A DNA stretch of 64,000 nt from Escherichia coli. GTDB taxonomy: Bacteria > Pseudomonadota > Gammaproteobacteria > Enterobacterales > Enterobacteriaceae. Each line of letters starts with the position of its first letter. Positions within the stretch are counted from its first letter, which is position 1. Where the stretch lies: NCBI RefSeq assembly GCF_003334405.1, contig NZ_QOWM01000004.1; one strand, written 5' to 3'. Made by a program: the position numbers and the translations under genes. A model generated the notes under the pieces. That model did not search any database. It had not been told where the DNA came from and saw nothing but the letters and a program-made list of their open reading frames with translations. Shown here piece by piece: positions 29,492-36,330 of this stretch.

Positions 29492-31713
29492 AGCGTTGGT
29501 TCCCCCGGCGGTAACGGTTCAGCCGGGGTCGCGCCCGGAGCAGGCAGCACCTGATAAGTCTGCACTGGCGCGCGAACGCCCGCCAGGTCGAAATGTTTTT
29601 TCACCTGGCTGTCGAGGGCAAAGCGTACCGTCCACTGTTTGAGTGGCAGCGTGGTGAACGAAACACGCAGTGTAAACGCGGTATTGCTTAAGCCGACAAT
29701 CCCGGCAAAATTCGGTTCACCAATAATCAGCCCGCGAATTTCTTCGTTTTCCATTAATTCCGCTACCGCATCTTTCAGTGCCTGATTGGCTTTATCAGCA
29801 TCTTCATGGCGATCAACATCATAATTTGCCACCACCGAACCAATGCCGCGGACAAAGTTAGCAAAGGTGGTTATCGAAGACCACGGAATGATGTGATACG
29901 CCCCGGTATCCTGTCGTACGCCCACGGAGCGAATCGACATCCGTTCCACTGTGCCGGTCAACGGCCCGATAGTCACCAAATCTCCAGTGTTCATGCCGTT
30001 TTCAAACTGAATAAATACCCCGGTGATAATATCTTTCACCAGCGTTTGCGAACCAAACGAGATAGCCAGACCTAATGCCCCGGCACCTGCCAGCAATGGC
30101 GCGATATTGACGCCGATTTCCGACAACACAATCATGATGGTGATGGTACTGATAATCACCGCCAGCGCGTTACGAAACAGCGTAAGCAGGGTACGCGTGC
30201 GGGCGCTGGGTAGCGGGCGGCCATGAATATCCGAAGCCAGCCGGTTTTCGATCAAACTGGCGAGCACCGTCCAGCCAACCGCCGAGAAGAAAAGAATGAG
30301 TGCGATACGGATCAGGATATCTACGGTTTTCTGCCCCGCGCCGTTTTGCAGCCAGTTCCAGAAATCGAACAATCCCCATGCGCTCAACAGCAACATTACC
30401 GCCACGCAGACTGTCAGAATACGCGCCGTTTTCAGCGCCGCCGACAGCCAGCCATTCAACCGTTTTTGCAGCTCCGGATAGTTACGCTGAGTATGTGGCG
30501 AGAGAGTGATGGTTTTCGCCAGCCAGCGGGAAAACATACCGGAAACAAACGCTGCGATACCAATAATCGCCAGGCTGCGCACCGTTGCACCCATCATAAA
30601 TTTCAGGCTGTTGCCCGGATCGAACAACGAAAAGAAAAACAGCACGATAAAATAGGCGCTTGCCAGCCAGTGCCACACCAGCGCAAAGGCGCGGATAAAC
30701 AGGCTGAAAAAGGCCAGCGAATGCTCCGCGAAGTTGAGCAAATGCTGGGTAATCTCTTTTTTATTACGAAAGATCAGGTACAACGCCCAGACGGTCATGC
30801 ACAGCATAATGATGACGTTCGCCAGCGCACCTATCTGTACATTCACCTGATTAGAGATAATCGGCACGGCCACAATCAGGCCATAACCTATCAAACTGCT
30901 TAACCAGCTCAGGCGACGACTCCAGTAACGGGCGCTCTCGTCCTGAATCGTGAACGGGCGCAGCTCCGCCACGTTTGGGCAAAAAATCAGGCGTAGTACG
31001 GCTTTGAAAAATTCAATGAGGGCAAAGGCGTTGAGAAACAAACTTTGTTGGAAAGCGATGGTGCGACTGCCTGCATTCAGGTTGTCGCTTAATACCTGGC
31101 CGACAAATAATGTCAGGGCCAGTAACAGCAGGTCGATAATAAACGCCCCGATAATCATCGCCGGAAGCTGCAACCAGTTGCTGCGCTCACGATTTTTTTG
31201 CCGCGCCCACTGACCCATTTTGCGATACAGCGGCAGTGCGCACAGGCGAATCAGCCAGTAAAAACCAAACACTAATACCGCTAACATTGAAAAATGGGTC
31301 AGCGCATTGCTGAAGGTTTGTGGATTAAACGGCTTATGCGGGGAGCCGGTGATATTGCGATAAAGTTGCCCGAAGCGGGCGGAAAGGGCTTCACCATAAT
31401 GGCGGCTGACTTCGGTGACCTTTTGCAGCACGGTTTGCTCTTCGACCAGCGTCGGCGGCACTATTTTTGGTACCGGTTCAGCAGGGGGCGTAGCGGCAAC
31501 GGTGCGCAACTGGTCGATCAACTCTTTACGCGAGGTGTCATTATCCAGCACATCCGCCAGTGCGCCATAGGCCGCTTTTTTTTGTTCGATATCCGGTTCC
31601 GGGGCCGGTTCAGTCGTTGAGTCCGTTGTCGTTGTGGTTGTAACGCCGGGTATGGATACCGCGTGGGCAGGTGCGCCCAGCAGGCAGAAGAGGATGAACA
31701 GGATCCACCGCAT
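29488..31713 (-). CDS. ybiO: MscS-family mechanosensitive channel YbiO
   Basis: Start [18 protein letters not shown] (signal peptide) after GGAGG RBS; ORF track extends to 31848. Confidence 0.9.
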
Positions 31714-31863
31714 GACTCCTCCAGTGAGAAAATAGAGCAAAAAGATAAGTATAGATGCTGGAGGAGGGGCGATTTTAAATGAGAGGAATCTGGTGTGCCT
31801 CCCTTTCGGGTGAAAGGGAGGAAGGGATATTAAGCAGGTTGCTGACAACGTGCGGGCTTTTTT

Positions 31864-31963
31864 GCCGGATGCGGCGTGAACGCCTTATCCGTCCTACAAG
31901 TTCATGCAATTTTAATAAGTTGCCAGATATCCTGTAGGCCTGATAAGCGTAGCGCATCAGGCA
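31864..31963. repeat. REP pair (BIME) between ybiO and glnQ
   Basis: GCCGGATGCGGCGTGAACGCCTTATCCGTCCTAC … GTAGGCCTGATAAGCGTAGCGCATCAGGCA. Confidence 0.75.
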
Positions 31964-31973
31964 ATGTGTCTTA

Positions 31974-32696
31974 TTAAGAGACGTGCTGCAAAAATTCCTG
32001 CAAGCGCTGGCTCGGCGGGTTCTTGATCAACACCTGCGGATTGCCATCTTCCGCAATCCGGCCTTTGTCGATAAAGATCAGCCGCGAAGCTACTTTCTCG
32101 GCAAAACCGATTTCGTGGGTCACGATCACCATCGTCATCCCTTCTTCAGCCAGATCCTGCATAACCTTCAGCACTTCATGGCGCAGTTCCGGGTCAAGAG
32201 CGGAAGTCGGTTCATCAAACAGCATCATTTTCGGCTTCACCGCCAGCGCGCGGGCAATCGCCACACGCTGCTGTTGACCACCAGAAAGTTCGGAAGGGTA
32301 GTGATGTGCACGTTCTGCCAGACCGACTTTCGCCAGCAGCTCACGTGCCAGTTTTTCCGCCTCTTCTTTGTTCGCGCCACGCACGCGTAGCGGGCCAAAC
32401 ATGACGTTTTCCAGCGCTGTCAGATGCGGGAAGAGGTAAAACTGCTGGAACACCATACCTGCTTCCTGGCGAATCAGGCGCTCGTCAACTTTCGGATCGT
32501 TAACCTTCAGGCCATCGACAATCAGATCGCCGGAGGTGATTTCTTCCAGTTTGTTGATGCAGCGCAGCAGGGTCGATTTACCGGAACCGGACGGCCCGAT
32601 AATCACCACGACTTCGCCCTGGGCAATGTTCAAATCGATATTGTGCAGCACCTGGGTTGGGCCAAAGTGCTTGGAGACGTTTTTAAATTCAATCAC
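31974..32696 (-). CDS. glnQ: Glutamine ABC transporter ATP-binding protein GlnQ
   Basis: ORF 240 aa; GPSGSGKST Walker A. Confidence 0.95.
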
Positions 32697-33352
32697 AGGA
32701 TTTTCATCCTTCTTTCCAGACGACGCAGAATAAAGCTCAGCACCAGGGTAATAATCAGATAGAACACCGCCACGGCGCTCCAGATCTCAAGGGCGCGGAA
32801 GTTACCGGCAATAATTTCTTGCCCCTGACGGGTCAGTTCCGCCACGCCGATCACAATAAACAGCGAGGTGTCTTTAATGCTGATGATCCACTGGTTACCC
32901 AGCGGCGGCAGCATACGACGCAGTGCCAGCGGTAAAATGACGTAGCGAATGGTTTCCCAACGTGAAAGACCGAGCGCCAGTCCTGCTTCACGAAAACCTT
33001 TGTGGATAGACAGCACCGCACCACGCGTGATTTCCGCAATATACGCGCCGGAGTTGATCATGATGGTGACCACCGCCGCAGTAAATGGGTCGATGCGTAA
33101 GTCGTTAAACGCCATCGGCAGGGCGAAATAAATAAACATCACCTGGACGACGATAGGTGTGCCGCGGATCACTTCAATAAAGACCAGCGCGACGTGGTTG
33201 GCTATCCAACCTCCGAAGGTGCGTGCAAAACCTGCCAGCAATCCGATTACCAGACCGCCTGCCAGACCGAGGACCGAAATCCACAGGGTCATTTTGGCAC
33301 CTTCAATCAGAAGCGGAATGGCAGGCCAGATGGCACTCCAGTCAAACTGCAT
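32693..33352 (-). CDS. glnP: Glutamine ABC transporter permease GlnP
   Basis: ORF 219 aa; ATGA overlap with glnQ. Confidence 0.95.
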
Positions 33353-33436
33353 ATGTTGTTCCTGTTACCGTGGTGTAAATAATCAAATTCAGGGTAATTA
33401 ATGGCCCCGGAGCGGGTTTGCGCCCCTCACCCTAAT

Positions 33437-33457
33437 CCTCTCCCCATAGGGGAGAGG
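33437..33457 (-). other. Intercistronic perfect hairpin CCTCTCCCC-ATA-GGGGAGAGG between glnH and glnP
   Basis: Read in sequence. Confidence 0.6.
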
Positions 33458-33490
33458 GAACTGCCAGTGCGTTTTACAGGTGTAGCGTTA

Positions 33491-34252
<762 letters not shown>

Positions 34253-34289
34253 CTATCCACGGGACGATCCCCTGCGTGACATTCACATA

Positions 34290-34310
34290 TATGAAAAAAT
34301 CGTGCCAGTT
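34290..34310 (-). promoter_or_regulatory. Sigma-54 promoter glnHp2 (TGGCACG-N5-TTTCA on minus strand)
   Basis: -24 GG/-12 element read on minus strand about 50 nt upstream of glnH ATG. Confidence 0.6.
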
Positions 34311-34380
34311 TTGCAACTCCTTGATTTTTCGAGATGCGGCAAAAACGTGATGCACGATTTATAGGGCAATACCCTGAAGA

Positions 34381-34410
34381 TGCACCATTCTGGGGCACCA
34401 ATCTGGTGCG
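34381..34410 (-). promoter_or_regulatory. Two overlapping NtrC-like enhancer sites (TGCACCA-N3-TGGTGCA type)
   Basis: TGCACCATTCTGGGGCA and GCACCAATCTGGTGC about 100 bp upstream of the sigma-54 promoter. Confidence 0.5.
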
Positions 34411-34640
34411 CTAAAATTGTGCACTCAACACAGTGATTATTTAGCGTAAAACCTGATGAAAAAACAATCTTTATGTAACGATTGTGTGATGATGTGGATA
34501 CAAAAAATTTACTTAATCAGCTGGAGATAGCAGATGGATGCACTAAATAAGTGCGTTGAGGTGGGCTGCAAAACAAAACGGCCTCCTGTCAGGAAGCCGC
34601 TTTTATCGGGTACTAAAGTTCTGCACCATCAGCGATGGAT

Positions 34641-35288
<648 letters not shown>

Positions 35289-35405
35289 TTAGATATATTG
35301 ATAAGAACAATTCTTATTTATCTGCTCGCCAGGAATTTTCGGAATAAATATGCTTTTGCATAATTCGATATATAAAGACGGTGTAGAGGAAAAGTAGCGA
35401 GAAAT

Positions 35406-35433
35406 TCTGCATGGTTATGCATAACCATGCAGA
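35406..35433. terminator. 28-bp near-perfect palindrome TCTGCATGGTTATGCATAACCATGCAGA directly after rhtA stop; probable rhtA terminator or protein-binding site
   Basis: Read in sequence. Confidence 0.45.
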
Positions 35434-35442
35434 AATGTAAAT

Positions 35443-36330
35443 TTAATTAATGTCTAATTCTTTTATTTTGCTCTCTTTGCGTACTGTCAGCGTAGACCCC
35501 ATTGAAGCGGCGATGATAGCGCCGAGCGCCAGTAGCTGTATGGGTGTCAGTGTTTCTCCGAGGAAAATCATCCCGGAAACGGCAGCCAGCGCCGGTTCCA
35601 TGCTCATCAGCGTACCAAATGTCCGTGTTGGCAAACGGGTGAGGGCAATCATTTCCAGCGAATAAGGCAGAGCGGTCGAGAGAATAGCGACAGCCAGACC
35701 CAATGGAATAACCGACCAGTGCCAGAGTGCTTCACCAGCCTGAAGCGCTCCAATTGGCACGAAAATTAACGCTGCAATCAACGAACCAATTGCCACCGTC
35801 GCAGGGCCATGTTCCGCTCCTGCGCGTTGCCCACTTAAAATGTAAATAGCCCAACAAGCCCCGGCCCCCAGTGCCAGCGCACAGCCGGTTAAATCGACAT
35901 GGGAAACGTCTTGCCCCAGCGGTAGCAGGAACCACAGACCAAGAACCGCCAGCACAACCCAGACGAAATCTACCGGGCGACGAGAAGAGAACAGCGCCAC
36001 CGCCAGTGGTCCGGTGAACTCCAGCGCCACCGCAATACCCAGCGGTACTGTCTGAATAGAAAGATAAAAAAGATAATTCATCCCACCCAGCGAAACGCCG
36101 TAAAACAACAGCGGTAACCGTTGCTCTTTGGCAAAGCGCAGTCGCCATGGCTTAAAGAACGCGATGAGGATCAGCGTTCCTAATGCCAGACGCAGCGCAG
36201 TGACACCCGGTGCGCCCACCAGAGGAAAAAGTGACTTAGCTAACGAGGCTCCACCCTGAATAGACGCCATGGCAACGAGCAATATGACTATTGGTAACCA
36301 GACCGGCATTTTACGTAATGAACCAGGCAT
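35443..36330 (-). CDS. rhtA: Threonine/homoserine exporter RhtA (EamA/DMT family)
   Basis: Start MPGSLRKMPVWLPIVILL…; ORF track extends to 36342. Confidence 0.9.
   Translation of the reverse strand: MPGSLRKMPVWLPIVILLVAMASIQGGASLAKSLFPLVGAPGVTALRLALGTLILIAFFKPWRLRFAKEQRLPLLFYGVSLGGMNYLFYLSIQTVPLGIAVALEFTGPLAVALFSSRRPVDFVWVVLAVLGLWFLLPLGQDVSHVDLTGCALALGAGACWAIYILSGQRAGAEHGPATVAIGSLIAALIFVPIGALQAGEALWHWSVIPLGLAVAILSTALPYSLEMIALTRLPTRTFGTLMSMEPALAAVSGMIFLGETLTPIQLLALGAIIAASMGSTLTVRKESKIKELDIN

Follow-up and report, generated by a model that had tools for sequence, protein, structure and literature searches.

The spacer between glnH and glnP in the glnHPQ operon of Escherichia coli contains a perfect hairpin, which raises two questions: to what kind of sequence does this hairpin belong, and does it set the expression of the periplasmic glutamine-binding protein apart from that of the permease and the ATPase encoded downstream? 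We address both for the locus as it is found in a 64,000-nucleotide stretch of an E. coli contig (NZ_QOWM01000004.1, assembly GCF_003334405.1), referred to in the following as the window, in which the operon lies on the minus strand. Window positions correspond to MG1655 coordinates minus 813,767. A search of the literature returned no description of a hairpin in glnHPQ. The elements of the operon are as follows:

34237..33491, minus strand: glnH, the gene for the periplasmic glutamine-binding protein, upstream of the hairpin on the mRNA
33437..33457, minus strand: the hairpin, with the mRNA 5′ arm CCUCUCCCC at 33457-33449, the loop UAU at 33448-33446 and the 3′ arm GGGGAGAGG at 33445-33437
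33352..32693, minus strand: glnP, the cistron downstream of the hairpin
32696..31974, minus strand: glnQ, a downstream cistron; glnP and glnQ together span 31974..33352
31798..31821, minus strand: operon-end hairpin after glnQ, a perfect inverted repeat (CCTCCCTTTC..GAAAGGGAGG) at the 3′ end of the full-length transcript

The preliminary description of this locus had reported a perfect hairpin in the 138-bp gap after glnH, and we can confirm it. Within the gap, which extends from 33353 to 33490, the inverted repeat at 33437-33457 consists of two 9-nt arms, CCTCTCCCC (33437-33445) and GGGGAGAGG (33449-33457), which are 100% complementary and are separated by the 3-nt loop ATA (33446-33448). On the mRNA strand it reads CCUCUCCCC-UAU-GGGGAGAGG, starts 33 nt past the glnH stop codon and ends 84 nt upstream of the glnP AUG, and has an RNA ΔG of -18.3 kcal/mol. 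When the entire gap is folded (z=-2.5 relative to shuffles), the 9-bp stem is part of the MFE structure as well as of the centroid structure. With a stable stem-loop in the transcribed spacer after glnH, the locus has a property that is characteristic of intercistronic stabilizers, such as REP in malEFG.

Perfect 9-bp inverted repeats with loops of 3-8 nt are found in 16 registers in the window, compared with 1.87 +/- 1.62 in dinucleotide shuffles. Hairpins are enriched in the window as a class, and a single repeat of this kind in 64 kb is unremarkable when taken alone. Chance can nevertheless be dismissed for the hairpin between glnH and glnP: together with its flanks, it belongs to a repeat family that is dispersed over the genome, at a median of 13 places, and matches the profile of this family with an nhmmer E=1.4e-11.

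This family is BoxC. Judged by sequence similarity, the hairpin is the central palindrome of a full-length copy of this repeat, also referred to as PIT or TMECO, and not an operon-specific element. Two features define the copy:

33416..33480, minus strand: envelope of the full-length BoxC copy (profile alignment 33470..33423), with the mRNA-strand sequence GCACTGGCAGTTCCCTCTCCCCTATGGGGAGAGGATTAGGGTGAGGGG
33423..33432, minus strand: third G-rich block GGGTGAGGGG, which fits the TMECO consensus

An nhmmer search with a profile of eight canonical MG1655 copies of BoxC matched 33470..33423 in a 48-nt alignment with 40 bits (E=1.4e-11); the hairpin with its flank has the mRNA-strand sequence CCCTCTCCCCTATGGGGAGAGGATTAGGGTGAGGGG. 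When the gap was aligned with these eight copies and their flanks, the similarity reached ~12 nt upstream of the triplex motif, and the conserved 5′ flank GCACTGGCAGTT at glnH-glnP aligned with the BoxC consensus GCcCGgaCGGTC. As a query against 5426 complete E. coli genomes, the 138-nt gap matched a median of 13 places per genome, and its sequence can therefore be assigned to a dispersed repeat. The element thus combines the hallmarks of BoxC, namely homology beyond the palindrome, dispersal in multiple copies and a wholly intergenic site. Within the window, both profile and sequence searches found no copies besides the one between glnH and glnP.

BoxC is without a curated Rfam family, and an Rfam cmscan of 31500-35500 (E<=1) returned no family at the hairpin. 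We also considered the hairpin as a possible REP sequence and rejected this identity: the REP-derived models in Rfam match only 31833-31894 after glnQ, and the REP consensus is absent at the hairpin. The sequence at 31833-31894, which lies on the minus strand beside the operon-end hairpin, is REP-like; its match to the Rfam family naRNA4 is sub-threshold, with 36 bits against a gathering score of 59.5.

BoxC was first described in the 1990s as a repeat of 56 bp with ~32 copies, and totals of 22-32 copies have been reported for E. coli. It was later rediscovered as a 'potential intrastrand triplex' (PIT; Hoyne and Maher) and subsequently as TMECO (Holder et al., 2015; PMC4666352), with the consensus CCCTCNCCC-N3-6-GGGNGAGGG-N3-GGGNGAGGG and 23 copies tabulated for MG1655 (PMC4666352). 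The third block has been proposed to serve, in single-stranded DNA, as the third strand of a triplex by binding the hairpin (PMC4666352). The copy at glnH-glnP belongs to type A, with TTA as the second loop, and consists of the blocks CCCTCNCCC / GGGNGAGGG / TTA / GGGTGAGGG; it deviates from the strict TMECO pattern by one substitution, in that its middle block is GGGAGAGGA. Because it is one base off this pattern, it is absent from the published table of 23 copies, which has no entry near 847 kb. By its sequence, it is a degenerate TMECO, yet a member of BoxC. The first block has a T where most BoxC copies have a G; the internal G.A mismatch that marks the commonest type ('A mm') is thereby abolished and the 9-bp stem is continuous, with a ΔG of -18.3 kcal/mol compared to -16.7 kcal/mol for the 'A mm' type. 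The annotation of the hairpin is hereby corrected to a BoxC copy that the latest published catalog has missed. In the published work on BoxC, PIT and TMECO, function is limited to an association with genome instability, whereas the copy at glnH-glnP coincides with a strong mRNA 3′ end:

33429..33433, minus strand: mapped glnH RNA 3′ ends, 4-8 nt beyond the stem, with no U tract after it

In the Term-seq data for MG1655 (Adams et al., 2021), the curated dominant 3′ end is at 847200(-), which corresponds to window position 33433 and lies 4 nt beyond the stem, within the sequence ...CCCTCTCCCCTATGGGGAGAGGATTA^GGGTGAGGGG. It was found in all three conditions, i.e. in LB at OD 0.4 (mean 30,332 reads), in LB at OD 2.0 (130,459) and in M63, and is listed in the 'orphan' class only because it is located >50 nt past the glnH stop codon. 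Independently, the TRS dataset (TRS 2023) reports dominant positions at 847196, 847197 and 847199(-), labels them 'Alternative primary in TU' for glnH and draws the same hairpin, with a longest U run of 2. Furthermore, SMRT-Cappable-seq, a long-read method for primary transcripts, records a unit comprising b0811 (glnH) only, with the TSS at 848198 and a 'ShorterEnd' relative to glnHPQ. The published Term-seq and TRS tables hence place an in vivo RNA 3′ end at the 3′ base of the stem, as in intercistronic stabilizers, with the proviso that Term-seq and SMRT-Cappable-seq do not distinguish termination from processing. The earlier proposal that the hairpin leads to more glnH message than glnPQ message finds support in substance: the 3′ end is present in two datasets, a glnH-only transcript exists, and all 78 gaps compared below possess a hairpin. 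We propose that the glnP and glnQ message is less abundant than that of glnH.

Several other RNA ends and structures are found in the vicinity. At the end of the operon, TRS reports a terminus at MG1655 845558-845560(-), which is window ~31791-31793. Within glnP, the same dataset contains an 'Internal' 3′ terminus at window ~33005 (minus strand; MG1655 846772), after a predicted structure of -15.7 kcal/mol. In LB at OD 2.0, Term-seq also recorded a 3′ end at window 34290 (minus strand; MG1655 848057), 53 nt ahead of the glnH start codon, where the leader of the transcript may have been terminated prematurely or processed. The intrinsic terminator of dps at 34568-34603 (minus strand; GCGGCTTCC..GGAGGCCGTTTTGTTTT) has a Term-seq 3′ end at MG1655 848340 and gave rise to a spurious, sub-threshold match to the Rfam family ctRNA_p42d. 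A hairpin that resembles a terminator, TTCGGTTCAGTACCGAA and then CCATTTTTTG, is present on the plus strand at 33495-33511, antisense to the last glnH codons, with no plus-strand gene evident upstream of it. A reading of the region as harboring a promoter or an antisense gene was rejected, as a scan of 31700-34500 revealed no sigma-70-like promoter; the 166-aa plus-strand ORF at 33401-33901 is a mechanical ORF antisense to glnH.

The hairpin is not the only element of interest in the spacer, which also contains a target site for the sRNA GlnZ:

33353..33386, minus strand: conserved block TTTGATTATTTACACCACGGTAACAGGAACAACAT at the 3′ end of the gap, common to other Escherichia and partly to other genera
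33373-33364, minus strand: GlnZ sRNA pairing site CCACGGUAAC, just upstream of the glnP Shine-Dalgarno sequence
33363-33360, minus strand: glnP Shine-Dalgarno sequence AGGA, within the conserved 3′ block

The GlnZ seed (nt 6-15) pairs with 33373-33364 with a ΔG of -18.4 kcal/mol in a seed-only prediction. According to published reporter assays, GlnZ represses glnP via the spacer site, and in Salmonella a pulse of GlnZ lowers glnP and glnQ >4-fold. This validated site was overlooked in the preliminary description of the gap. Since the hairpin and the sRNA site are both located there, the spacer would hold two elements that uncouple glnH from glnPQ, and their presence in one spacer provides a testable model of uncoupled expression in an ABC-transporter operon.

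How might the glnH 3′ end arise? As the most likely reading, we favor the view that the BoxC stem acts as a barrier to 3′ exonucleases and leaves a stable glnH mRNA, and we consider this probable. RNA polymerase would mostly pass through BoxC into glnPQ, a read-through that we propose because BoxC is without a U tract. The glnPQ segment would be lost via endonucleolytic cleavage or downstream Rho-dependent termination, presumably to a greater extent when GlnZ blocks the translation of glnP, and 3′->5′ exonucleases (PNPase, RNase II) would trim the transcript back until they stall at the stem of -18 kcal/mol. This would leave a stable glnH mRNA, monocistronic and with its end 4-8 nt beyond the stem; the expected outcome is that the message for the binding protein exceeds that for the permease and ATPase, and that glnH is insulated from regulation directed at glnP. 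As a general rule in E. coli, 3′ ends that lack U tracts and lie just after stable stem-loops arise by PNPase/RNase II trimming; the proposed mechanism matches both this rule and the reported lack of terminator activity in PIT elements. We infer that the glnH 3′ end originates from trimming, not termination, and that it would not form without the hairpin.

Alternatively, the hairpin could be a partial terminator or attenuator, either intrinsic or aided by Rho/NusG, that halts some of the polymerases at or shortly past the stem and so determines, during transcription, the glnH:glnPQ ratio. A 3′ end directly after a GC-rich stem would suit such a mechanism, as would the recorded glnH-only primary transcript and the predicted fold of the gap, in which a second, larger structure (33435-33389) is followed by AAUUUGAUUAUUU. 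However, the glnH-glnP hairpin has the stem of an intrinsic terminator without its U tract: the tail is AUUAGGGUGA, with a longest U run of 2, and the hairpin was not called in a terminator scan. Moreover, earlier reporter tests of PIT/BoxC, in the form in which they are cited by Holder et al. (2015; PMC4666352), gave neither terminator nor promoter activity. An involvement of Rho is likewise difficult to reconcile with supplementary file 2 of Adams et al., which lists no Rho or bicyclomycin (BCM)-sensitive region at 8471xx, 8472xx or 846xxx, and with the G-rich downstream sequence, which is unlike a rut site. While we regard partial termination as unlikely on these grounds, one further point in its favor comes from other genera, where many of the equivalent hairpins have a U tract in the manner of a leaky terminator.

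For this comparison across the Enterobacterales, the glnP loci of 80 representative species yielded 78 glnH-glnP gaps, of which 77 were scanned for hairpins along with the gap of the window (78 in total). A strong single hairpin was found in every one of these gaps (78/78), with a median ΔG of -21.3 kcal/mol vs -12.6 kcal/mol for shuffled sequences, and 72 of the 78 gaps were >5 kcal/mol better than their own shuffles. The hairpins are of unrelated sequence types and include a terminator-like type, which consists of CAGGGGCG-loop-CGCCCCTG and then CTATTTTTGA (Kosakonia, Buttiauxella, Cedecea and others), a REP-like type of the form GCCCGG...CCGGGC CTAC (Citrobacter, Enterobacter, Salmonella) and a long-palindrome type (Klebsiella, Raoultella). 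The U tracts mentioned above, exemplified by CAGGGGCG..CGCCCCTG CTATTTTTGA, correspond to at least five T in the 10 nt after the hairpin and are present in 35 of the 78 gaps. Outside E. coli, the BoxC motif was found in none of the glnH-glnP gaps of the compared species. Even in E. albertii, E. whittamii and a divergent genome labeled 'E. coli' (L007), which have the 5′ sequence TAACGCT and the 3′ block TTTGATTATTTACACCACGGTAACAGGAACAACAT in common with the window, a REP-like hairpin occupies the exact position of BoxC, and the REP-type allele of L007 occurs in 0 of 5426 complete E. coli genomes. The position of the hairpin has been kept across the Enterobacterales while its sequence has been replaced several times, which makes the glnH-glnP hairpins a clear example of selection on structure, not sequence.

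This history also bears on a second alternative, namely that BoxC is a selfish or neutral repeat at this site, that the 3′ end is incidental and that the ratio is set elsewhere, for instance by translation efficiency or GlnZ. Any stable stem would stall exonucleases, and REP and BoxC commonly colonize intergenic gaps. BoxC in particular can be detected at a median of 13 dispersed places in each genome, is found at glnH-glnP in E. coli only and exhibits neither orientation bias nor functional association genome-wide, so that its occupancy of this site could be opportunistic. We nonetheless find a neutral origin of the 3′ end quite doubtful, given that a strong hairpin is kept in 78/78 species gaps despite the repeated replacement of its sequence, that BoxC is near fixation in E. 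coli and that the arms are invariant whereas the loop and the flanks vary.

Within E. coli, 5402 of 5426 genomes possess the BoxC allele at glnH-glnP, as judged by a query coverage of at least 80%. Both arms are invariant in the 12 intact haplotypes (94.6-100% identity), although with 9 variable sites in 138 nt, the finding of zero in the 18 arm positions is not significant (estimated p~0.28). All three loop positions (33446-33448) are polymorphic, with the variants TAT, TCT and GCC, for which gene conversion between BoxC copies or palindrome-driven mutation are possible causes. Variation is otherwise confined to the third G block, which occurs as GGGTGAAGGG or with a 1-nt deletion, and to sites just past the glnH stop codon. 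Covariation in the stem is not obtainable, since the arms are invariant; the pattern of variation as such fits the retention of the stem.

Besides the arms, 78 nt downstream are invariant among E. coli strains. Disruptions of the locus are rare, and two strains carry insertion sequences there. In strain B2.3 (L103), ISEc10, a member of the IS21 family, is inserted in the 5′ arm of the hairpin at window ~33450, and in strain FORC_042 (L006), a copy of IS26 is found in place of the spacer (33353-33490) and glnP.

Finally, a role at the DNA level, in which the three-block motif would fold into H-DNA or an intrastrand triplex, disturb replication or recombination and thereby promote local genome instability, is highly improbable: while the triplex motif is matched with one mismatch, family oligonucleotides form triplexes in vitro, TM loci are more rearranged between strains, the loop is hypervariable, and two strains carry insertions at the locus (ISEc10 within the stem, IS26 instead of the gap and glnP), in vivo DMS footprinting of another copy gave no support for a triplex (PMC4666352), the mRNA has the purine-motif orientation, which is reported not to form in RNA (PMC4666352), the locus is intact in 5402/5426 genomes and the RNA 3′ end would be left unexplained.

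For the exonuclease barrier that we favor, a second BoxC copy offers a hint that this role is possibly general to the family. The copy at tauD/hemB (L088 265-299; MG1655 388,664-388,699) likewise coincides with the 3′ terminus of a transcript, the hemB mRNA, for which TRS records a peak at 388646-388663 (-); here, the transcribed strand is the C-rich strand, in opposite orientation to the glnH copy. Six other BoxC copies have no curated 3′ end in the Adams tables, which is weak evidence, because multi-mapping reads were filtered from this dataset and most of the genes are weakly expressed. As a separate observation, another BoxC copy is located within an ABC-transporter operon, between pstA and pstB (L093 396-430; MG1655 3,908,495-3,908,530), in opposite orientation relative to the mRNA.

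BoxC has been without an accepted function for about 30 years and was last read as a triplex-forming instability motif. The locus described here ties this repeat family of unknown function to a measured RNA phenotype, the dominant glnH 3′ end, and provides a plausible first functional assignment for a BoxC element. On a more speculative note, BoxC elements may, like REPs, serve as stem-loops that protect RNA 3′ ends. In glnHPQ, BoxC would then be an insulator that allows GlnZ to shut down glnPQ, be it by translation block, decay or Rho polarity, yet to spare glnH, and it would have taken over, within the E. coli lineage, from an ancestral hairpin of REP-like or terminator-like type with the same role. 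We advance this wider scenario tentatively, as one possibility that we would not yet call probable.

The features of the glnH-glnP hairpin are best appreciated in comparison with known systems. In its terminator-like stem energy, its low U content and the precise 3′ end immediately downstream, it resembles the trimmed 3′ ends of E. coli that lack U tracts; unlike these, it is located inside an operon and not at an operon end. A second parallel concerns the sRNA SroC, which reportedly derives from the gltI-gltJ spacer of the gltIJKL operon, a finding credited to Miyakoshi et al. in 2015. In both operons, which encode amino-acid ABC transporters, a discrete RNA end is formed in the spacer that follows the gene for the binding protein, and this spacer is involved in regulation by sRNAs, whereas we found no evidence of the glnH 3′ region acting as an sRNA or sponge. 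The closest parallel is provided by REP/BIME sequences, which are said to stabilize mRNA between the cistrons malE-malF and hisJ-hisQ, as attributed to Newbury et al. in 1987. Like these, the hairpin is a stable palindrome between the gene for the binding protein and the genes for the membrane components of an ABC transporter operon, its 3′ end is located at the foot of the stem, with no U tract after it, an excess of the message for the binding protein is expected, and REP-like hairpins occupy exactly this position in sister species. Unlike REP, the glnH-glnP sequence is without the REP consensus, and its stabilizing role is predicted. By analogy, the hairpin most likely works in the same way as the REP-type intercistronic stabilizers, as a member of a known repeat family that would require no new kind of mechanism.
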